In this document: one piece after another, positions 42,482 through 54,525 of the stretch
Layout of the letters: each line of letters begins with the position of its first letter
How positions within the stretch are numbered: the first letter of the stretch is position 1
Source of the DNA: Promethearchaeia archaeon
GTDB lineage: Archaea; Asgardarchaeota; Lokiarchaeia; Sigyniarchaeales; SOKP01
DNA: 64,000 bases
Direction of reading: 5' to 3'
Assembly: GCA_046483985.1 (NCBI GenBank)
Contig: JAWOCD010000005.1
Coordinates: forward strand, 30,862 to 94,861
Translations under genes and position numbers: made by a program
Notes under the pieces: generated by a model
The model's database searches: none
The model's input: only the letters and a program-made list of their open reading frames with translations
What the model was told of the DNA's origin: nothing

Positions 42482-43006
42482 TTAAGGTATTTTTGCGGCT
42501 CCAATCAGTCCGATTATTGCACCAGCAGTCCCTATGAAAAATCCATTTCCTAAACGCCATGTATACATTGTTGCTTCTCCGAAAAATATATTATACTCCT
42601 CACTTCCGGTGATGAAATTAAGGAAATCGATTCCCCATTCCAAACTCTCATTATTTGTAAGAGCAATGCAAAAAAGCGCCAATCCTCCAACCATCATGAG
42701 TGCGCTCAAAATACCTACTCCTTTTGTCTCTTGTGATGCTGCATAAATAATTAAGACGGATCCTAAAAGATATATTATCCCTGCAACTAATCCGAGCGTT
42801 TCCAAGGCAAGCTCCGATTCCTCTCCACTACTCATACCAAACGCATTTAGATAAAAGGTTGTATTGAACAGATCATTTTCCACTTGCCACCACGCGCCCA
42901 ATGATTCTTCAATAAAAAAGGAAAGGACCGCGAAAATGCCTATAAGGCCAGCTACGATAGCAATTATTTTTGTGTCATTATTTTTTCTTCCCATTTCAAT
43001 CAACAT
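42482..43006 (-). CDS. Integral membrane protein, function unknown
   Basis: It has 4-5 hydrophobic helices in 174 aa. Confidence 0.45.
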   Translation of the reverse strand: MLIEMGRKNNDTKIIAIVAGLIGIFAVLSFFIEESLGAWWQVENDLFNTTFYLNAFGMSSGEESELALETLGLVAGIIYLLGSVLIIYAASQETKGVGILSALMMVGGLALFCIALTNNESLEWGIDFLNFITGSEEYNIFFGEATMYTWRLGNGFFIGTAGAIIGLIGAAKIP

Positions 43007-43080: not shown

Positions 43081-43764
43081 TCATATACAAGATGCCAATT
43101 TCTGAATTATATACAAGGTGCCAATATAAATATAAGATCCGATCGGGATAAGAAGTAAGGAATAAAAAGCAAACAAATCTGTAGTTAGCGTACCCGCAAT
43201 AATAGCAATGAAAAAAGGTCCTATTACCCAACCCGCAATTCGGGAATATTTTGGACTATGAAAGGAAATGAAATAAAATATTATGACCATTGAAAATCCC
43301 GGTAAATAATAAAAAGGCACGTAAGGCCAAATTGGAATTGGCTGTCCTAAACCTCCCAATACACGGAATGAAGCAAGAGTGGAGTCCCACCAATTTCCCG
43401 CGGGAAAGGGATATACTCCAGTATCAATCCATTGGCTCATCCAATACATGACATCTTCAAACATGGTCATAAAAAAGAGCCCCATAACTATTTGTTCAAT
43501 AGTAAATTTTCCCTTATATCTCGTGGTAATTGCAACACAGAGCACCACCCCGAGATACATAATTGTCCAATTCAAGGTTGGTCCTAATAAATCGAGCAAA
43601 CGGGGATAATGATAAACAATAAAGTATTCATAAATCCCATACAAGAATGAATAGAGGAAAGCGGTTAAAAAACCCCTTTTCATAATATTTCTGTGAACTT
43701 CCTTTTCATAAATTCGCAAGGGACGTTTTAGGAAGAAATCTTCTATTCTTTTTATGAGTTTCAT
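43081..43764 (-). CDS. Integral membrane protein, function unknown
   Basis: It has about 6 hydrophobic, Trp/Tyr-rich helices in 227 aa. Confidence 0.45.
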   Translation of the reverse strand: MKLIKRIEDFFLKRPLRIYEKEVHRNIMKRGFLTAFLYSFLYGIYEYFIVYHYPRLLDLLGPTLNWTIMYLGVVLCVAITTRYKGKFTIEQIVMGLFFMTMFEDVMYWMSQWIDTGVYPFPAGNWWDSTLASFRVLGGLGQPIPIWPYVPFYYLPGFSMVIIFYFISFHSPKYSRIAGWVIGPFFIAIIAGTLTTDLFAFYSLLLIPIGSYIYIGTLYIIQKLASCI

Positions 43765-44046
43765 AAAAATAATTGATATCCAAAATCTAATAAATATTTG
43801 TGAAAATTTATCGTTTAATATTGATTTGGCAATTTGAGCAATTCACTGACGGATCGTTTGTTCTGAATTGAATTCTGTGTTTTATATGATCTATGATCTT
43901 CATAGAGGGGCATTCCCCACTGAGCTCAGTTAATCATCGCGGGTTCTTCCCAAATGTCACGTTTCTGGTTTTTAACAAATTAATAAGGTATTTTGGATAT
44001 TATAATATAATGAGTATAACATATGAAGAATCGGATTTGAATTATT

Positions 44047-46137
44047 TTGATTAATGGAGTGGTCGTTCCCGCACTAACCTTTTTTAATAATGAATATCGA
44101 TTAATTAATGAGTTAAATTCACTTTTATACAGACATATTGTTTTAAATGGGGCAAATGGGGTATTTTTATTCGGAACCACCGGTGAAGGGATGATGTTTA
44201 CCGATAAAATTGAACAAAAAATAAATTATATAAACTTAACAATCGAGAGTGAACAAAAAGTTCCCGTTCTTCTTGGAGTTTGGGGAAACGATGAAGATAA
44301 GATAATTGATGAGATTAAAGAACTAGCAATTCAATTTCCTGCATTAAATTTCGTCATTATTCCTCCAATGAATGAAAAAAAATCTATTGCAGATTTAAAA
44401 TCTTATTTTGAAACCATTTTAGGTTCATTAGATATAAAAAATCCGATCTATCTTTATAATAATCCGGATCTTTTTGCTGGAAACAATATAAATCAAAATA
44501 TTCTTAGGTGGCTTTTGACTTTTTCGAATTTAGCGGGTATAATAGACTCCTCGCGAAAAATCAAGACGTATAAAGGTTGTATAGAATTTTTAAGTGAGGA
44601 ATTTAGTGTTTACTGTGGACGGGAGAGTAATTTTTCCAATTTTCTACAACTTATCCCACAAGAAAAACGAAAATATGCTGGATTAGCCCCGAGTATTGGA
44701 AATCTATCAAATATATCAAAAAAGTTATATCAAGCGGCATTAGAAAAAGAGCCGTTAAAACTAGTACAGTTGCAAGAAGAACTTAATGATTTTCGAGATA
44801 AAATCTATGATATTAAAGTAAGGAAAGGTAAACAACAAAGGGGGCTAAAATATGCATTTTACAATCTTTATGAAGACATTATTAGTACACCTGAACAAAA
44901 AGCTTTAACAGTTGCACCCAGAAACGAGCGTATTTTAGAAGATACGGTAAAAGACAGAATCACCGCTACCGTTCAATTTTTATTCAATCAATCTTATATT
45001 GATCGATTTTATAAAATCGGGAATCATTTATATGATTTCACGACTCTTGCTTCAAAGATTTCCAAAATCGATAAATTACAAGAACTCGGTGAACTAAAAA
45101 AAATAAAGGGTCCTTATGGAGGGAGAATAAACAAAATTTATCGAATAAAATTGGGTATCAATTCATATGTGCTCAGAGCACGAACTTCTCAAGCGTTTCG
45201 TTATGAAGGCTTAATAAAAGAAAAAGTATTATTCCCCTTTTTGGATAGCTCTTTACATAAAGAATTACCAGATCTTGGAAATCGGGTTGATAAGATCTGT
45301 GGTGAGAAAAAAGGCTCTTATACATTTGACGAAGACTCTCCATCTGTTATACCTGTTTACGATTTAATATATTATGACGAAACAAAGGAATTATTCCCGC
45401 ATATATATTCCATTCATGAATATCTGCCGGGAAAGACATTATACTCTTTGCTGGAAGATTATAAAATTCTTAAAGAAAGCAGGCTTTTCAAGAATTTTTT
45501 GGATCTCTTTGAAAACATAGGTAAAATTCTTGGAAAGATTCACGAGATCTCTTTCAACGGATTTTATTACAAAATTGATGAAATTGGACATCAAGCTAAA
45601 CAATTAGAGTGGGGAGAACTATTTCAAAAGCAATTAGAAGAGGAACTTTCCCAATTAAATGAAGAGAAATTAGAAATCATCCCGGACATCAAGCAATATT
45701 TCGAAGAACATTCTTCTTTAATTAAAGAGAATGAAGAAGCAGTATTGATTCATAATGATTTTCAAGGACAAAATATAATCGTTAAAGAAGAAGAATCAAC
45801 TGGAGCATTTCGTTTAAATGGACTTATTGATTTTGATAATTGGAGAGTGGGTGTGCGAGCTCAAGATTTTGTTAAGATAAATTTTTGGACATTAAATCCG
45901 CTAAATGACCCTCAATTGAAAGAGGCCTTTTATAAGGGATATCAAAACCGATCTGGTATTTTAATAAGTGAAACTTTTGAGAAAAAAATTGAGATCTATT
46001 CTCTGCTTTGGTTCTTAAAAGTATATAATTTTGAAATGGATAAAATGCAGAAAGGGAAGCAAGGTAAAATTATAGATAAACGATTTCCTCCCCCAGAACA
46101 ATACATAAATGAAATAAAAAAAATATTGACCCCTTAA
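44047..46137 (+). CDS. Fusion protein: DapA/DHDPS-like TIM-barrel domain plus APH/ChoK-type phosphotransferase domain
   Basis: The N-terminal part has VVPALTFF...FGTTGEG...YLYNNP. The C-terminal part has YVLRA, EYLPGKTLY, LIHNDFQGQNIIV (HxDxxxxN) and GLIDFDNW. The start is TTG. Confidence 0.6.
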   Translation: MINGVVVPALTFFNNEYRLINELNSLLYRHIVLNGANGVFLFGTTGEGMMFTDKIEQKINYINLTIESEQKVPVLLGVWGNDEDKIIDEIKELAIQFPALNFVIIPPMNEKKSIADLKSYFETILGSLDIKNPIYLYNNPDLFAGNNINQNILRWLLTFSNLAGIIDSSRKIKTYKGCIEFLSEEFSVYCGRESNFSNFLQLIPQEKRKYAGLAPSIGNLSNISKKLYQAALEKEPLKLVQLQEELNDFRDKIYDIKVRKGKQQRGLKYAFYNLYEDIISTPEQKALTVAPRNERILEDTVKDRITATVQFLFNQSYIDRFYKIGNHLYDFTTLASKISKIDKLQELGELKKIKGPYGGRINKIYRIKLGINSYVLRARTSQAFRYEGLIKEKVLFPFLDSSLHKELPDLGNRVDKICGEKKGSYTFDEDSPSVIPVYDLIYYDETKELFPHIYSIHEYLPGKTLYSLLEDYKILKESRLFKNFLDLFENIGKILGKIHEISFNGFYYKIDEIGHQAKQLEWGELFQKQLEEELSQLNEEKLEIIPDIKQYFEEHSSLIKENEEAVLIHNDFQGQNIIVKEEESTGAFRLNGLIDFDNWRVGVRAQDFVKINFWTLNPLNDPQLKEAFYKGYQNRSGILISETFEKKIEIYSLLWFLKVYNFEMDKMQKGKQGKIIDKRFPPPEQYINEIKKILTP

Positions 46138-46514
46138 TTAGGTTCGTATAGTACTGCAACCATTAACGTAAATTCCCACGGGGCGTTTGCCTTGTCATAA
46201 ACCAGCGTTTGAATATCTTCTGATGCTTCTCTCTTTGTATGTTTATAAAAGACTTCCCATGCAGTCTGTCCTATTATCTGCGGATCGTTTAAAACATCTG
46301 AAAATTTTTTATTTATGCCCGCATAATAAATAGCTTTATTATCAATAATTTGTTTTAACTCTGCCAGATCCATAAGTTTTGCTGTTTTTACAATATTTTC
46401 GGTAATTTGCCCAAAATAATCACTTAATTTCTTAGAAACCTCATTGGGAGCACCTTCTTTGCCATCATACAGAAAAACTATACCAATTGCTTCCATTTTT
46501 TTCTCTTGACTCAT
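46134..46514 (-). CDS. Uncharacterized approximately 120 aa protein, paralog family member 1
   Basis: By eye it is about 45% identical to the product of 46750-47115. Shared elements are GIVFL, TEN-V, IID-K-IY, AWE-F-KHT, EDI and APW-FTL. Confidence 0.55.
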   Translation of the reverse strand: MSQEKKMEAIGIVFLYDGKEGAPNEVSKKLSDYFGQITENIVKTAKLMDLAELKQIIDNKAIYYAGINKKFSDVLNDPQIIGQTAWEVFYKHTKREASEDIQTLVYDKANAPWEFTLMVAVLYEPN

Positions 46515-46749: not shown

Positions 46750-47115
46750 TTATTTATATACAACACAAGCACATAGAGTAAAGTTCCATGGTGCATCTTC
46801 TCCCTTATAGATTAAACAACGGATATCCTCATCAGCCTCTATATTTGTATGTTTTTTAAATAGCTCCCAAGCCAAATCTCCGAGTTTATCCCCGTTTTCG
46901 ATGACTTCATTGAATCTTTTTTTAACAGCTCCCCAATAGATCTTTTTCTCATCGATTATCTTCTTAAGATCAACTAATTCCATTAACCCCTCACGAACCA
47001 AGTTTTCTGTTACCCCAGAAAAATATTTTTTAAATTCTTTAGATACATCTTCTGGTTTACCCTCTTCCATGTTAAATAAGAAGACTATACCCTGTGCTTT
47101 TCCTAAATCAGACAT
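46750..47115 (-). CDS. Uncharacterized approximately 120 aa protein, paralog family member 2
   Basis: See 46134-46514. Its 5' half and promoter are duplicated at 48463-48711. Confidence 0.55.
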   Translation of the reverse strand: MSDLGKAQGIVFLFNMEEGKPEDVSKEFKKYFSGVTENLVREGLMELVDLKKIIDEKKIYWGAVKKRFNEVIENGDKLGDLAWELFKKHTNIEADEDIRCLIYKGEDAPWNFTLCACVVYK

Positions 47116-47361: not shown

Positions 47362-48414
47362 TTAATCCAGCAATTTTTCTACTACTTTAGTTGCCTTTCT
47401 TGCATTTTCGGCATAACCGTCTGCCCCTACTTTTTTCCAAAGATCGGGAATCATGTTAAAGGCTTTCCCTCCCACCAGTATCTTTATATCCGAACACTCG
47501 GAAATTCGTATCTTATCAACCAATTGTTTAACTAAATAGATATGATTTATTAAACTACTTGAAATGGCAAGTAAATCCGCGTCTTGCTTTTTTATCATAT
47601 TGAGAATCGAATTACGAGGTGCATTTGCCCCAATATAAAAAACTTTCCAGCCTTCATATTCCAAAAGATTAGAAATCATCTTAATTCCTAATTCATGCTG
47701 TTCTCTTTCAATACATGTAGAGATAATGGTTTTCTTGTCCTTTTCTGGCTTCGATTCGATATTTTTGAATTGACTAATAATTGTATCGGAGATTACGGTG
47801 CTTAAGTGTTCTCGGGCGACAGAGATTTGGTTAATTTCCCAGAGCCTACCGACTTCATATTGAGCGGGTTGAATAACATTCAAATAGATATCTACTAATG
47901 GCACCCCTTCTTGTTCTAATTTTTCGATGATTAAAAACGCCTTTTCTCTATATCCCTTAAGGATGAAGTCTAAATAATCTTGTGCTTCTTTATTATAAGG
48001 ATTATCCATCTTAATAAAACTCAGCGGGACTTTAAGTTCCTCTTGAAAGATATTATTTATTCCAGAAAAGAAGCGATTTAAAATGTCGTGAATTGTTTTT
48101 TCTTTGAATTCTAAATTTAAGATATTTTTGGTCTCTTCCAATGTTATTAAAACTAATTCTCCCGTCAATCCCCGATTTTCTAATACATTTTTTATCCACT
48201 TAACATATTTTTTAAATAATTCGGGTTGATCTAAAAGAATAGCATGGGAAAGATATTCCAAATGGTATGTAAGGTCTTGAAGGGATTGTTGTTTTTTTTT
48301 TTCACCATAGATATTTTCGAGTGCCGATACTCTTTCAAAGATCCTTTCTAAGATGGATTTTGCTAATTTTTCCTTTTGATTTAATAAAATTTCTCCAAAT
48401 TCTTGCTTATCCAT
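47362..48414 (-). CDS. Cobalamin-binding protein with CarH-type photoreceptor signature and an N-terminal helical domain of unknown function
   Basis: It has the B12-binding_2 helix bundle with W-x9-EH (LWEINQISVAREH). The Rossmann B12 domain has E-x-H-x-x-G (EQHELG) 48 residues after the Trp. No MerR or other DNA-binding domain is present. Confidence 0.75.
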   Translation of the reverse strand: MDKQEFGEILLNQKEKLAKSILERIFERVSALENIYGEKKKQQSLQDLTYHLEYLSHAILLDQPELFKKYVKWIKNVLENRGLTGELVLITLEETKNILNLEFKEKTIHDILNRFFSGINNIFQEELKVPLSFIKMDNPYNKEAQDYLDFILKGYREKAFLIIEKLEQEGVPLVDIYLNVIQPAQYEVGRLWEINQISVAREHLSTVISDTIISQFKNIESKPEKDKKTIISTCIEREQHELGIKMISNLLEYEGWKVFYIGANAPRNSILNMIKKQDADLLAISSSLINHIYLVKQLVDKIRISECSDIKILVGGKAFNMIPDLWKKVGADGYAENARKATKVVEKLLD

Positions 48415-48873: not shown

Positions 48874-49788
48874 ATGAACTATCAAAAAGAACTTAAAATT
48901 GCAACAAAATTAGTTCGAAATGCTTCTCAGATAACCAGTTGGTTTAAGGAACGAAGCTTTAGAGAGCTACGGAAGCAAGATAAGACTCCCGTGACTTTGG
49001 CAGATTGGGCTTCCCAAATATATATTATTTCCCAGTTAAAAGAAAGTTTTTCCAATGATCAAATTATTGCTGAAGAGGATAGTTCGGTACTCATCTCAAC
49101 TCTTTCTTCTAATATTCGTAAATGTTACCTTGATTTGAATGTAACAATTGAATCTAATCTTAAAAGCATTTTAAATTATCGAGGTTCAAAGTCTCAGAGA
49201 AAATGGACTATAGACCCTGTGGCGGGAACCAGAGGATTTTGTCTTCCCAATGGAATTTACTGCATTGCTATAGGATTTATGATTGAAAATGACCCAAAAG
49301 TATGCGCAATACATATACCAAATTATAAGGATGGAACCCCTGCAACCTTTCGTGCAATTAAAAATGCTGGAGCTTATGCCTCTTATAAAGGCGGAGAATT
49401 CCAAAAGATTCATGTAAGTTCTCGTTCTAAATTGGATTCTGCCCGAATGTGTCAATCAAAGCATAATTCCGCTCCCGAGATATATAAGTTTGCAGATATG
49501 GTTGGGATATCTGATAAATTAGTTATTGACAGCATGGCAAAATATTGTAAAATCGCTGAGGGGAGTTATGATTTCTATTTACGCCAGAGCAATTTCTACA
49601 ATGGCTCTTGGGACTTTGTTCCTGGAAATCTCCTTGTTCAAGAGGCTGGAGGTAATATGACAGACTTAAAGAATAATTCTTTGCAATTTCATGAGGAATG
49701 CTGTATTTTATCTGCCCCTGGATTTCTTGCTTCGAATGATATGCTCCATGATAGAATTCTGGAAATTTATAATGATAACTTCCTATAA
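48874..49788 (+). CDS. Inositol monophosphatase superfamily, SAL1/HAL2-type 3'(2'),5'-bisphosphate nucleotidase-like
   Basis: It has DKTPVTLADWASQ (SAL1/HAL2-like), AEEDS, WTIDPVAGTRGF and WDFVPGNLLVQEAGG. Confidence 0.75.
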   Translation: MNYQKELKIATKLVRNASQITSWFKERSFRELRKQDKTPVTLADWASQIYIISQLKESFSNDQIIAEEDSSVLISTLSSNIRKCYLDLNVTIESNLKSILNYRGSKSQRKWTIDPVAGTRGFCLPNGIYCIAIGFMIENDPKVCAIHIPNYKDGTPATFRAIKNAGAYASYKGGEFQKIHVSSRSKLDSARMCQSKHNSAPEIYKFADMVGISDKLVIDSMAKYCKIAEGSYDFYLRQSNFYNGSWDFVPGNLLVQEAGGNMTDLKNNSLQFHEECCILSAPGFLASNDMLHDRILEIYNDNFL

Positions 49789-51077: not shown

Positions 51078-51728
51078 ATGGCTAAAGAAAAAAAAATTAG
51101 GAATGAAATAATTAATGCGGGGAAAACGCTCTTTGAAAAAGGCGTTGTCGAAAATAACGAGGGAAATATCAGTGTACGATACGGAAGAAAAGAAGAACTT
51201 TTCATTACTCCGACGGCTAATAATTACCAAAAATGCACACCTGAAGAAATTGTGCACATGGACTTTGACGGAACAGCTTTAAGCAAAGGAAAACTCCCCT
51301 CAACAGAATCAAAATTACATGTTGATCTATATGAGGCACGTAGAAAAGCAAAATGTGTAATTCATACCCATTCACGATATGCTACAATCCTTTCAGTGGT
51401 TCATAAAAGCATCCCCATTATAATGGAAGAACAAATAATCTATTTAGGTGGTTCCATCGATATGGCACCCTATGGCGAAGCCCATACAGAGAATATTGGC
51501 GAGGCTGCGCTTCAAGCCTTAGGAAAGAAGAATGCCGCTCTCTTAGCCAATCATGGGGTGGTGGTTTGCGGAAAATCAGTTGCTAATGCGGTAAAAGCGG
51601 CCGAACTGGTTGAAAAGTTAGCGCAAGTATATTGGGGGGCACTCCAAGTCGGGGAGCCGAACATTATACCCAAAGACCAAACCGAAAAATTCGAGAAGAT
51701 GTTTAATATGTTGTTTCGCGCTAAGTAA
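51078..51728 (+). CDS. Class II aldolase/adducin family protein (FucA/MtnB-like)
   Basis: It has GNISVR, VIHTHS and LANHG zinc-ligand motifs. Confidence 0.8.
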   Translation: MAKEKKIRNEIINAGKTLFEKGVVENNEGNISVRYGRKEELFITPTANNYQKCTPEEIVHMDFDGTALSKGKLPSTESKLHVDLYEARRKAKCVIHTHSRYATILSVVHKSIPIIMEEQIIYLGGSIDMAPYGEAHTENIGEAALQALGKKNAALLANHGVVVCGKSVANAVKAAELVEKLAQVYWGALQVGEPNIIPKDQTEKFEKMFNMLFRAK

Positions 51729-51816: not shown

Positions 51817-52662
51817 ATGAATTTAGGAATAAGTTCTTTGGGGCATATTAATCAATATGCCAAAGAAAAGGAATATGACACACTTTTTGACTTATTGTAT
51901 GAGGCAACGAGGGATTGTCTTCTTTATGTGGAAAAACAAAATCTGAATCTCTGTGAGGTTCTCTTGGAGCCGTTGGCTTTGATGAAGGCTCAGGAAAAAC
52001 AAGAATTCATTGAATTATGTAATTCTTTCCATTCAATTAAAAAACAAGTCCATGGCCCCTTTATCAGTGTAAGTTTATGTTCGCATAATAAATTCATTTC
52101 CGACGCATCGATTGAATCCTATGTCCTTGCAGCTGAAGTAGGCGAGCAAATCGGAGCTCAAAATATGACAATTCACCCGGGATTGGTCAGTTTTTTACCA
52201 AAACCTTTGAGAGTTTTCCACCGGGAGAGAATAGAGGCTGCTCTTACAAAATTACTCAAGACGACGAAAAAGTTTGATCTGAAGATCTGTCTGGAAAATA
52301 TGCCAAAAGGTGTTGGAATCTGTTTAAAGCCCGAGGAGATACAAAGGTTTTTGGAACATACGGATATTTATAACCTCTTTTTTACATGGGATACGAGTCA
52401 TTCATGGACAAATGATATAGAGGTATCAAAAATTTGGAAGTTACTTCATCAATACATTAAAAATATCCATATTGTGGATAATTTTGAAAGGGAATCTGAT
52501 ACGCATCCTGCTTTGGGAACCGGAAAAATAGACTTTCGAGAGATTTTTTCATTTATCCAACAATACGATTACACCGGATCTTTAATTTTAGAAATAGGAC
52601 AAGCAAAGGATTTAGATGAAAGTCTCGATTATATCCAACATTATTTATATTCCCCAGTTTAA
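51817..52662 (+). CDS. Xylose isomerase-like TIM barrel protein (sugar phosphate isomerase/epimerase family)
   Basis: The length and the pattern MTIHPG...LENM...WDTSH...HIVDN...GTG.IDF match the AP_endonuc_2 fold. Specific activity is unknown. Confidence 0.6.
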   Translation: MNLGISSLGHINQYAKEKEYDTLFDLLYEATRDCLLYVEKQNLNLCEVLLEPLALMKAQEKQEFIELCNSFHSIKKQVHGPFISVSLCSHNKFISDASIESYVLAAEVGEQIGAQNMTIHPGLVSFLPKPLRVFHRERIEAALTKLLKTTKKFDLKICLENMPKGVGICLKPEEIQRFLEHTDIYNLFFTWDTSHSWTNDIEVSKIWKLLHQYIKNIHIVDNFERESDTHPALGTGKIDFREIFSFIQQYDYTGSLILEIGQAKDLDESLDYIQHYLYSPV

Positions 52663-53118: not shown

Positions 53119-54525
53119 TTAATAAAAGTGAAGAGATAGATCCACCTCTTCGGACGGAAACTGAGTTAATCTACTTGAACTTATTACATCTGGTTCTGCT
53201 TCCAAATAAGAGGCCAGATTCTCGAAATTAATCCCCCCCGATACCTCAATTAAGACTTTATTACGCAAACCGTGCTCATTAAGTAGATTAATGGCATTTT
53301 TTACCTCTTCTGGATCCATATTATCCAGCATAATTATATCTGCTCCAATTTTTGCAGCTGTTAATAAATTCTCTACTTTCTCAATTTCAATTTCGATTTT
53401 TTTTGTAAAACTCGCTTTTTCTTTAACAGCTCTTAAAAGCACTTCCACATCACCATTATAATAACGTAAATGTGTATCTTTTAAAAGAATCATATCATCT
53501 AAGGAAAACCGATGGGGATCACCACCCCCGATTTCAATTGCTGCTTTTTCGAAGATGCGAAGTCCAGGGAGAGTTTTTCGTGTTCCTGCAATTTTTGTTT
53601 TTTTCTTCAATTTTTGAGTAAGATTTACATATTTTCTCGTAGTTGACGAGATAGCACTCATATGCGTAAGAAGATTTAATCCAACACGTTCTATTAAAAG
53701 AATATCATGAGCATTTCCGGTTAAGTCAACGATATGATCTCCTTTTTCTATAAAATCACCGTCCCGGTTTTGAAGATCTGATTCTACATTACACATATCG
53801 CATAGAACATTAAAAAATGTTAAACCAGAGATATAACCTTTACTTTTTGCGATAATTTTTGCTTTCACCCTTTCCTCTTCCGGAATAAATGCGGAGCTTA
53901 CATCCTTAAATTGGCAATCTTCTTTCAAATATTCTCTAAGTTTTTCTTTAATCAAGATGATATTATAGTTTTTATCAACAGATTCCTTTACTTCTTTTGG
54001 GAGATTTTCAATTATATGGAGTTTGGTTTCTGGAGTAATTAAACAAACACCCTTCGGTTCTAGGTTCGTCACTTTAAATTTCTGTTTTCTACCTTTCCCC
54101 CTCGAAATAATGAGATTATCATCCAAGGTTATTGGAGTATTCTGGGAATTCTTTTTAATGAGGGATTTAACTTGGGAATTACGTTTTATATCGAAATTTA
54201 AAGCAGTAAGACTAACAGATTTGGCATCTTTTGCTTTAGCCTTTCTAATTCTAACAATGTCTCCTTTTTTAGTTTTCGTATTTTTTCTAAGACGGGAATC
54301 AATCCGAGCAATTTGTAGCCCCTTATCGTCTGGATAATTTGGCCAAACTATTCCCGCACTTTTCTTTTTCCCTTTAATTACAACGATGTCTCCTGTTTCC
54401 AGATTTAAGTTTTTCATTATTTTTTCATCTATTCGAATGATATTTCGACCCTCATCTCGATCTTTAGCGCTTTGAACTTCTAAGATATAAATTTTTTCAT
54501 TATGGTTATTATTGTTTTTCTTCAT
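53119..54525 (-). CDS. nadC: Fusion: Cdc48/VAT N-domain (double-psi barrel plus beta-clam) joined to nicotinate-nucleotide pyrophosphorylase (quinolinate phosphoribosyltransferase)
   Basis: Residues about 12-175 read [58 protein letters not shown]...FKVTNLEPKGVCLITPETKLHI. Residues about 190-468 carry the NadC motifs LLIERVGLNLL, AGTRKTLPGLR, GGGDPHRFSLDDMILLKDTH, IMLDNM and EVSGGI. Confidence 0.8.
   Translation of the reverse strand: MKKNNNNHNEKIYILEVQSAKDRDEGRNIIRIDEKIMKNLNLETGDIVVIKGKKKSAGIVWPNYPDDKGLQIARIDSRLRKNTKTKKGDIVRIRKAKAKDAKSVSLTALNFDIKRNSQVKSLIKKNSQNTPITLDDNLIISRGKGRKQKFKVTNLEPKGVCLITPETKLHIIENLPKEVKESVDKNYNIILIKEKLREYLKEDCQFKDVSSAFIPEEERVKAKIIAKSKGYISGLTFFNVLCDMCNVESDLQNRDGDFIEKGDHIVDLTGNAHDILLIERVGLNLLTHMSAISSTTRKYVNLTQKLKKKTKIAGTRKTLPGLRIFEKAAIEIGGGDPHRFSLDDMILLKDTHLRYYNGDVEVLLRAVKEKASFTKKIEIEIEKVENLLTAAKIGADIIMLDNMDPEEVKNAINLLNEHGLRNKVLIEVSGGINFENLASYLEAEPDVISSSRLTQFPSEEVDLSLHFY

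Follow-up and report, generated by a model that had tools for sequence, protein, structure and literature searches.

The class I aldolases of the DHDPS/NAL superfamily (PF00701) carry their Schiff-base lysine at the end of barrel strand β6, and this residue matters greatly to catalysis: its mutation lowers the activity of E. coli DHDPS 300-800-fold (K161A, K161R), and abolishes measurable activity in human HOGA (PMC3188589). In the searchable literature, there is no account of a fusion between a DHDPS/NAL and an APH-type kinase domain, nor of a DHDPS-fold pseudoenzyme. Here we describe such a fusion, encoded at positions 44047-46137 of a 64,000-nucleotide stretch (the window) of contig JAWOCD010000005.1 from a Promethearchaeia archaeon. 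From comparison with its relatives, we consider it fairly probable that this gene represents an Asgard-specific fusion of an aldolase and kinase gene pair, in which the aldolase later became non-catalytic and the kinase is the working enzyme.

The gene and the parts of its product (the window protein) are as follows.

44047-46137 (+): fusion open reading frame (ORF), complete, 696 residues, TTG start; DHDPS/NAL-like domain followed by an APH/ChoK-like kinase
44047-44988 (+): aldolase-like domain, residues 1-314; (β/α)8 barrel with C-terminal helical bundle, DHDPS/NAL superfamily
44173-44190 (+): GTTGEG carboxylate-binding motif, residues 43-48 (T44, T45), kept (alignments)
44449-44466 (+): YLYNNP, residues 135-140; Y137, equivalent to DapA Tyr133, kept (alignments)
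44542-44544 (+): codon ATA for Ile166, at the Schiff-base lysine position (DapA K161); one transversion from AAA
44989-45081 (+): junction, residues 315-345; end of the aldolase partner, then a β-hairpin and helix leading into the kinase N-lobe
45082-46134 (+): kinase domain, residues 346-696, bilobal APH/ChoK fold (Pfam PF01636, separate model, Foldseek)
45370-45387 (+): YYDETK, family-specific invariant motif of the kinase N-lobe (family alignment)
45751-45774 (+): catalytic loop HNDFQGQN, residues 569-576 (H569, D571, N576; alignments)
45826-45843 (+): metal-binding IDFDNW, residues 594-599 (D595, D597; alignments)

The window protein is 100% identical, with the same annotated length, to a protein (P0001) on a 116-kb contig of a public Promethearchaeia metagenome-assembled genome (MAG). 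Pfam assigns DHDPS (PF00701) to residues 2-202 (E 1.4e-18; 67 bits versus a gathering score of 22) and APH (PF01636) to residues 435-632 (E 6e-15; 56 bits versus 23). An AlphaFold2 model of the full protein, built with a 28-sequence family alignment as input, has a mean predicted local distance difference test score (pLDDT) of 88.6 and a predicted template modelling score (pTM) of 0.84. Because the fold search with this model was swamped by DHDPS matches, the kinase half was modelled alone (residues 335-696; pLDDT 83, pTM 0.86). The junction coincides with the point where split forms of the protein are separate genes, as judged from the ends of the split genes and the secondary structure of the model. 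A preliminary description of this DNA had read the locus as a single fused gene and had quoted several motifs from it (among them GTTGEG, IPPMN, YLYNNP, LAGIIDS, HNDFQGQN and IDFDNW). All the motifs quoted lie where stated, and the fusion is found as one ORF in more than 70 independent assemblies, which rules out an assembly artefact or two genes wrongly joined.

The aldolase-like domain and its lysine position

In Foldseek searches, the N-terminal 314 residues match best to C. glutamicum NAL (5c54), NanA, YagE and DHDPS (template modelling scores normalised to the target of 0.82-0.88, over about 315 columns), and KDG aldolases are also among the structural matches; for NAL, NanA and DapA, the scores are 0.86-0.88. 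Fold and profile both place the domain in the PF00701 superfamily, and the GxxGE motif (with T44 and T45) and the Tyr133 equivalent are in position. The Schiff-base lysine at the end of strand β6 is absent, and Ile166 stands in its place.

This substitution had first been proposed from a manual alignment, and three lines of alignment now agree on it. When the protein is aligned by phmmer to solved DHDPS/NAL structures, the lysine of the IKD/TKDS segment falls on the second Ile of LAGIIDS (residues 162-168) in three of four distinct alignments, the exception being that with YagE, whose lysine falls in an insertion. MAFFT pairs K161 of E. coli DapA with I166, and in the family alignment 24 homologues read GIKDS, with K in the exact column of Ile166. 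By these alignments, the window protein lacks the residue by which a class I aldolase is catalytically defined.

A neighbouring lysine of the segment SSRKIK had been named as a possible stand-in, and this candidate is ruled out. K171 is Lys in 96% of the family members that keep the catalytic lysine (K-bearing) and in 22% of those that do not (K-less); it belongs to the ancestral K-type loop and disappears along with K166. K176 is as well conserved in one group as in the other, and none of the neighbouring columns of the family alignment is Lys in all K-less members; profile alignment likewise restores no lysine at the site. The preliminary description had also pointed to replacement of the region around DapA Tyr107. 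The position is indeed Met108 (IPPMN, residues 105-109), but it carries little information, since the column is Tyr in only five of 82 members and is rarely Tyr even in those that are catalytically intact. The equivalent tyrosine is not a universal feature either, given that human HOGA Y140F is fully active (PMC3188589).

Among the NCBIfam models, dapA, KD(P)G aldolase, NanA and several kinase models all match the window protein far below their curated cut-offs. The DapA model TIGR00674 gives 67.6 bits versus an equivalog cut-off of 206, and the position of DapA Arg138, which binds aspartate semialdehyde, aligns with Leu142. For NAL, TIGR00683 gives 16.8 bits (cut-off 382) and PRK04147 gives 19.3 bits (cut-off 281). 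The modelled fold is nearest to NAL, but this is a matter of resemblance only, and the public name "dihydrodipicolinate synthase family protein" is simply a superfamily label.

Family, split gene pairs and repeated lysine loss

A search of 5.8 billion proteins returned 83 clusters at 40-100% identity, all of them fusions of about 690 residues, and those that are named all come from Asgard archaea (Promethearchaeota/-eia, Hermod-, Hod- and Thorarchaeota). When a single genome of each species was scanned, with patterns that picked up only fused-type kinases, 72 loci were found, all in Asgard MAGs and nearly all with the fused gene as a single ORF; at locus L050, the fusion is broken by a frameshift. 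A HMMER search of 1.84 billion representatives with a kinase profile found 18 proteins at E<=1e-30, which are the family itself, and below these the scores fall to archaeal APH proteins of 300-350 residues at 65-113 bits. Six of ten such proteins sampled match the fructosamine-kinase model, and the named ones belong to DPANN archaea; by profile score, FN3K-like archaeal APH proteins are the nearest kinase outgroup. Taken together, these searches indicate a discrete family that is confined to Asgard archaea and set in a conserved syntenic block. The architecture had been called unusual, and a search for it in other genomes had been proposed: it is real and undescribed in the searchable literature, but it is a conserved Asgard family rather than a peculiarity of one genome.

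The kinase-profile search also recovered standalone kinases of 385-434 residues in Hod-, Loki-, Sigyn- and Promethearchaeota. At all six of the split loci examined, a standalone DHDPS-fold gene is followed on the same strand, 11-37 base pairs (bp) downstream, by the kinase gene. All six split aldolases retain the Lys (in G[IL]KDSS), the (S/T)T-G-E-G motif and the Tyr, and they carry the private motifs of the fused domain. In NCBIfam, the split aldolases stand no closer to one of DapA, KD(P)G aldolase, HpaI-like, NanA and KdgD than to another, with every score well short of its cut-off, and the split kinases match nothing meaningful. Genes for sialidase-like BNR_2 β-propellers lie next to two of the six pairs (L080:4807-5943 (+) and L007:5644-7077 (+)); that of L080 stands directly upstream of its pair, in the same orientation, and matches neuraminidase weakly (E 1.7e-6). 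Sugar-type deacetylases are found at three of the six. These genes, present at a minority of loci, hint at sugar or amino-sugar catabolism.

Within the fused family, the lysine column of 82 members contains K in 24, I in 28, N in 24 and other residues in six, for a K-less total of 58; in the species set, the counts are N 34, I 25, K 4 and V 1. When the concatenated split pairs are used to root a neighbour-joining tree, K is the state at its base and at least six changes between K and non-K are required, so that the lysine is reconstructed as ancestral in the fused family and lost at least six times. Across the alignment, its loss correlates with decay of the partner residues: T44, T45 and Y137 are all kept in 18 of the 24 K-bearing members, versus five of the 58 K-less ones.

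The window protein keeps T44, T45, Y137 and the SS.K...YK loop, which together make an otherwise K-type site, and its two closest relatives (81% and 73% identity) retain the Lys. Since the K-type loop is wholly kept and the nearest relatives are K, the loss in this protein is recent and isolated. Isolated losses in otherwise intact sites recur elsewhere in the family, to N in P0007 and P0054, to Q in P0009, and to I in P0029 and P0036. The "pseudo-aldolase" of the preliminary description is therefore correct as to the missing lysine, but what it describes here is a recent single-base K-to-I change in a site that is K-type in other respects.

The same facts could be read as a fully active, Lys-bearing bifunctional aldolase-kinase, with Ile166 being due to a mistake in the consensus or assembly, or to a minor strain variant within the MAG. 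ATA is a single base from AAA, the close relatives are K, the rest of the active site is K-type, and the exact sequence is known from only one contig. We nevertheless consider this very unlikely, as 58 of 82 members have no K and Ile is the commonest replacement, as the isolated losses listed above arose independently, and as errors are rare in a high-coverage consensus.

Purifying selection acts as strongly on the K-less aldolase domain as on the kinase. Among K-less members, mean pairwise identity is 52% for the N-terminal domain and 54% for the kinase, and the median ratio of nonsynonymous to synonymous substitution rates (dN/dS, Nei-Gojobori method, 38 K-less pairs at 80-97% identity) is 0.186 and 0.182, respectively. 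For K-K pairs, dN/dS is about 0.10-0.13 in both domains. Conservation was also compared between the catalytic face and the rest of the barrel, with the pocket approximated, for every barrel strand of the predicted model, by five residues starting at the strand end; the ratio is 1.25 for K-type proteins, 1.13 for the N-type clade and 1.00 for I-type proteins. Because the I-type face shows no excess conservation, a conserved ligand pocket is not general among the K-less forms. A new loop, LkGLNDSFYNIKnCKSY, is conserved in the N-type clade, where a new binding function is possible. The idea that the domain is a ligand-binding module thus receives no specific support, as only the N-type clade shows a remodelled, conserved pocket; judged from the model, a structural, scaffold or regulatory role in the service of the kinase would fit at least as well and is more economical.

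A barrel without the canonical lysine might still be catalytic, through residual non-covalent activity, through another lysine (K171, K173 or K176) or through new chemistry. The E. coli DHDPS mutants K161A and K161R do keep measurable activity at their 300-800-fold lower level (PMC3188589), the window protein still has T44, T45 and Y137, and the remodelled loop of the N-type clade is conserved. Continued catalysis is highly improbable all the same, given the lysine columns described above (K171 co-lost, K176 equal in both groups, no column that is Lys in all K-less members), the absence of the Thr/Thr/Tyr set from most K-less lineages, and, in I-type proteins, equal conservation of the catalytic face and the remainder of the barrel.

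The kinase half and its genomic neighbourhood

Foldseek matches the kinase model only to small-molecule kinases of the APH/choline-kinase fold, and the matches are generic (12-17% identity): APH(9), APH(4), APH(3'), ethanolamine/choline kinase, homoserine kinase and NahK, with a probability of 1.0 for APH(9), APH(4), APH(3') and ethanolamine kinase. The bilobal fold and the profile agree with PF01636, as do the HxDxxxxN loop (H569-N-D571...N576) and the I-D595-F-D597 motif. Conservation of the key residues is high (H569 in 79 of 81 members, D571 in 76 of 81, N576 in 81 of 81, D597 in 80 of 81, E392 in 80 of 83 and K393 in 83 of 83), and the species-representative set gives the same picture, with key residues 90-100% conserved. 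D595 is less constant (D in 64, N in 10 and G in 7 of 81). An arginine at the β3 ATP-anchoring position is common in PF01636, and R377 (R in 79 members, K in 4) and E392, which by secondary structure occupy the expected β3 and helix-C places, are the candidates for the anchoring pair. The kinase core had been described as intact, and H569, D571, N576, D595, D597 and the putative R377/E392 pair are indeed all present. The kinase half is probably a working enzyme, which is predicted to transfer phosphate from ATP to a sugar-type hydroxyl.

As to the substrate, sequence and profile comparison of the kinase half with the PDB finds only the catalytic loop of 3csv (E 1.3e-5) and gives no clue, and the fructosamine-3-kinase model PF03881 has no match to the window protein at E<=1. 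A keto-acid or sugar-acid type ligand, as suggested in the preliminary description, is still a guess, since neither fold, sequence nor context assigns a substrate.

The C-terminal half could alternatively be a protein kinase (RdoA/SrkA-like, Ser/Thr-specific) or an FN3K-like ketosamine kinase acting in deglycation, in which case the barrel would be a sensor or docking domain. The NCBIfam Ser/Thr kinase model PRK11768 matches weakly (E 1.9e-4 for the window protein, about 2e-5 for the split kinases), some members bear the name RdoA at JGI, and the fructosamine-kinase Pfam model matches both the nearest outgroup proteins and several members of the family. All of these scores are far below curated cut-offs, the window protein does not match PF03881, the best fold matches are without exception small-molecule kinases, and the ancestral operon partner is a metabolic lyase; we find this identity distinctly unlikely.

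In the window, the fusion gene is alone on its strand, with a divergent membrane-protein ORF on one side and convergent small ORFs on the other, and it appears to be monocistronic. The surrounding features that recur in the comparisons below, together with the upstream region, are the following.

43765-44046 (no strand): upstream intergenic region, shared with the divergent membrane-protein ORF (ORF map)
48874-49788 (+): Inositol_P family gene, HAL2/CysQ-like; position +1, same strand, in 55 of 77 related loci
51078-51728 (+): class II aldolase (Aldolase_II); conserved syntenic neighbour
51817-52662 (+): xylose-isomerase-like TIM barrel (AP_endonuc_2); conserved syntenic neighbour

The syntenic block runs SRP54, RNA methyltransferase, amidohydrolase, AMMECR1, a variable slot, the fusion, Inositol_P, Y-family polymerase, Aldolase_II, AP_endonuc_2 and NadC, and is shared, across several Asgard phyla, by loci whose fusion proteins have only about 42-48% identity. 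Most of it is probably inherited gene order. Among the 77 loci, Aldolase_II is a neighbour in 69, AP_endonuc_2 in 49 and FGGY in 37, and many loci have upstream an FGGY kinase, an SCP2-like ORF and a 2-Hacid_dh::Aldolase_II fusion. Certain of these associations recur with the split form: Aldolase_II directly follows the kinase in L082, and an FGGY gene lies near the L005 pair, as does a PfkB gene.

In the salvage of methionine and of 5-deoxyribose, APH-type sugar kinases and class II aldolases are found as partners. By analogy with MtnK and DrdK, the kinase and its neighbours might form a sugar-phosphate route, in which the kinase product would be isomerised (AP_endonuc_2) and then cleaved or decarboxylated (Aldolase_II). 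The neighbour counts and the split-locus associations just given (with cluster-14, described below, also near the L005 pair) speak for such a route, and the Aldolase_II of the window resembles fuculose-P aldolase, Ru5P epimerase, Ru1P aldolase and OtnC. The block also contains SRP54, a dihydroorotase-like amidohydrolase, NadC and a Y-family polymerase on mixed strands, its synteny may be no more than inherited order, and in the window opposite-strand genes separate the would-be members. To us, a dedicated route of this kind seems very doubtful.

Several other genes around these loci deserve mention. The product of 48874-49788 scores best as a HAL2/CysQ-type 3'(2'),5'-bisphosphate nucleotidase (143 bits, below cut-off), not as an IMPase. 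The D-2-hydroxyacid dehydrogenase::class II aldolase fusion has 557-560 residues (L002:3395-5068, L004:3394-5076 and L079:8217-9899 (+)) and lies just upstream of the DHDPS-APH gene in many loci, preceded by the FGGY kinase and the SCP2-like ORF. Cluster-14 is an uncharacterised soluble protein of about 200-245 residues, encoded as the divergent -1 neighbour of the fusion in 41 of 77 loci (for example L034:8086-8817 (-) and L010:8065-8796 (-)); it is seen in these two, in L005:7207-7995 (+) and in 39 other loci. In the split locus L005, it is directly downstream of the kinase (43 bp as called, with the longest ORF abutting the kinase stop). It has no Pfam or PDB match, and a PPR match was rejected as a repeat artefact. 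Cluster-14 is absent from the window, where membrane-protein ORFs (42482-43006 and 43081-43764) hold its slot.

Downstream of the fusion, 46134-46514 and 46750-47115 (-) are small paralogous ORFs of 126 and 121 residues with no Pfam match; the 3' end of the first overlaps the fusion stop codon by 4 bp, and ORFs of this family follow the fusion closely, on the opposite strand, in about 19 related loci. The segment from the fusion to the Inositol_P gene contains 47362-48414 (-), which encodes a 350-residue protein with B12-binding_2 and B12-binding domains. This gene appears to have been inserted in the lineage of the window, since it has no homologue among the 77 loci (a singleton in clustering). 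Finally, 53119-54525 (-) is a 468-residue ORF in which CDC48_N and CDC48_2 are fused N-terminally to QRPTase_N/C (quinolinate phosphoribosyltransferase), versus a syntenic NadC of only 284 residues in L002 and L004.

Proposed history and comparison with known systems

The history that we favour begins with two adjacent genes, the first for a NAL/KD(P)G-aldolase-like class I aldolase and the second for an APH/ChoK-fold small-molecule kinase, which would have fused into one. Most likely, these two genes made up a two-step catabolic module, in which a lyase would act on a 2-keto-3-deoxy sugar acid and the kinase would phosphorylate a hydroxyl of its substrate or product. Once the genes had fused, aldol chemistry became dispensable, and the tree shows repeated loss of the Schiff-base lysine. 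The older K-less lineages have lost the Thr/Thr/Tyr partners too, and the window protein has a recent single-base K166I change with the rest of the site intact. Since purifying selection on the barrel equals that on the kinase, the barrel probably now serves the kinase in a non-catalytic role, perhaps as a structural or oligomerisation scaffold, in substrate positioning or in allosteric control.

Some observations weigh against this account. Ile166 depends on one base (ATA versus AAA at 44542-44544) in a single assembly. The pocket comparison uses a proxy from the strand ends of a predicted model rather than a ligand complex, and the conserved, remodelled β6 loop of the N-type clade might reflect binding or catalysis of a new kind in place of a purely scaffolding role. 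In 17 of 81 members, N or G occupies the D595 position, and part of the kinases may therefore be impaired. The gene is not indispensable, since on a 998-kb Asgard contig only its last ~132 codons are left at the syntenic position (L079:10001-10396 (+)); this remnant has no N-masking and a catalytic-loop His changed to Gln, and is a relic of gene loss. Lastly, the long syntenic block is rich in housekeeping genes, which makes the neighbours weak functional evidence.

A bolder proposal can be built on the same account, namely that this is a hitherto unknown, Asgard-specific metabolic or regulatory device, in which a class I aldolase barrel, repeatedly stripped of catalysis, came to present the substrate to a new kinase for sugars or sugar acids, or to control it allosterically. 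That kinase would feed the products of the Aldolase_II and isomerase genes in a new sugar-phosphate route. We offer it tentatively, as an unlikely elaboration.

What is new here is an undescribed fusion that is restricted to Asgard archaea, conserved in syntenic position, and marked by repeated, independent loss of the nucleophile in a half that is still under selection; the folds themselves are textbook. The family provides a natural series from enzyme to pseudoenzyme, with intact split pairs, intact fusions, single-residue knock-outs (such as the window protein) and fully remodelled forms. It also points to a kinase that is widely conserved, yet uncharacterised, among the archaea most closely related to eukaryotes. 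In practical terms, the "dihydrodipicolinate synthase family protein" label could mislead metabolic reconstructions, in that genomes would be credited with a DapA or an aldolase activity of which most copies are incapable.

Set beside described systems, the N-terminal domain resembles NAL, KD(P)G aldolase and DHDPS in its complete barrel and helical bundle, its GxxGE motif with T44/T45, its Tyr133 equivalent and the D-S context that follows the Lys position of strand β6 (LAGIIDS). It differs from the PF00701 aldolases in having, in the window protein, Ile for the Schiff-base Lys, no Tyr107 equivalent and a covalently attached kinase, and from the PF00701 subfamilies in the private motifs of the fusion domain (NNPxxFxGN, CGxE, SxxNLxN and GKxQRGLKYAF). 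The kinase shares with APH, choline/ethanolamine kinase and FN3K the bilobal fold, the HxDxxxxN loop and the IDxD motif, and has a candidate for their N-lobe vLR...E pair. Unlike them, it has only 12-17% identity to solved structures, with a PDB sequence match that covers the catalytic loop only, a large N-lobe insert with an invariant YYDE(T/S)K, and an aldolase that is fused or operon-linked to it.

As an arrangement of genes, the closest parallel is bacterial NanA and NanK, in which a NAL-fold lyase is likewise encoded beside a sugar kinase, and the BNR_2 genes at two of six split loci and deacetylases at three of six extend the likeness. NanK, however, is of the ROK family and not of the APH fold, the fused lyase is dead, and the supporting context comes from a minority of loci. 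In retaining its fold and purifying selection after loss of the nucleophile, the fused barrel resembles the pseudoenzyme domains that are fused to or paired with active enzymes, such as dead paralogues that serve as regulators or scaffolds; it is unlike those known in that live and dead states occur within one orthologous family, separated by at least six independent transitions.

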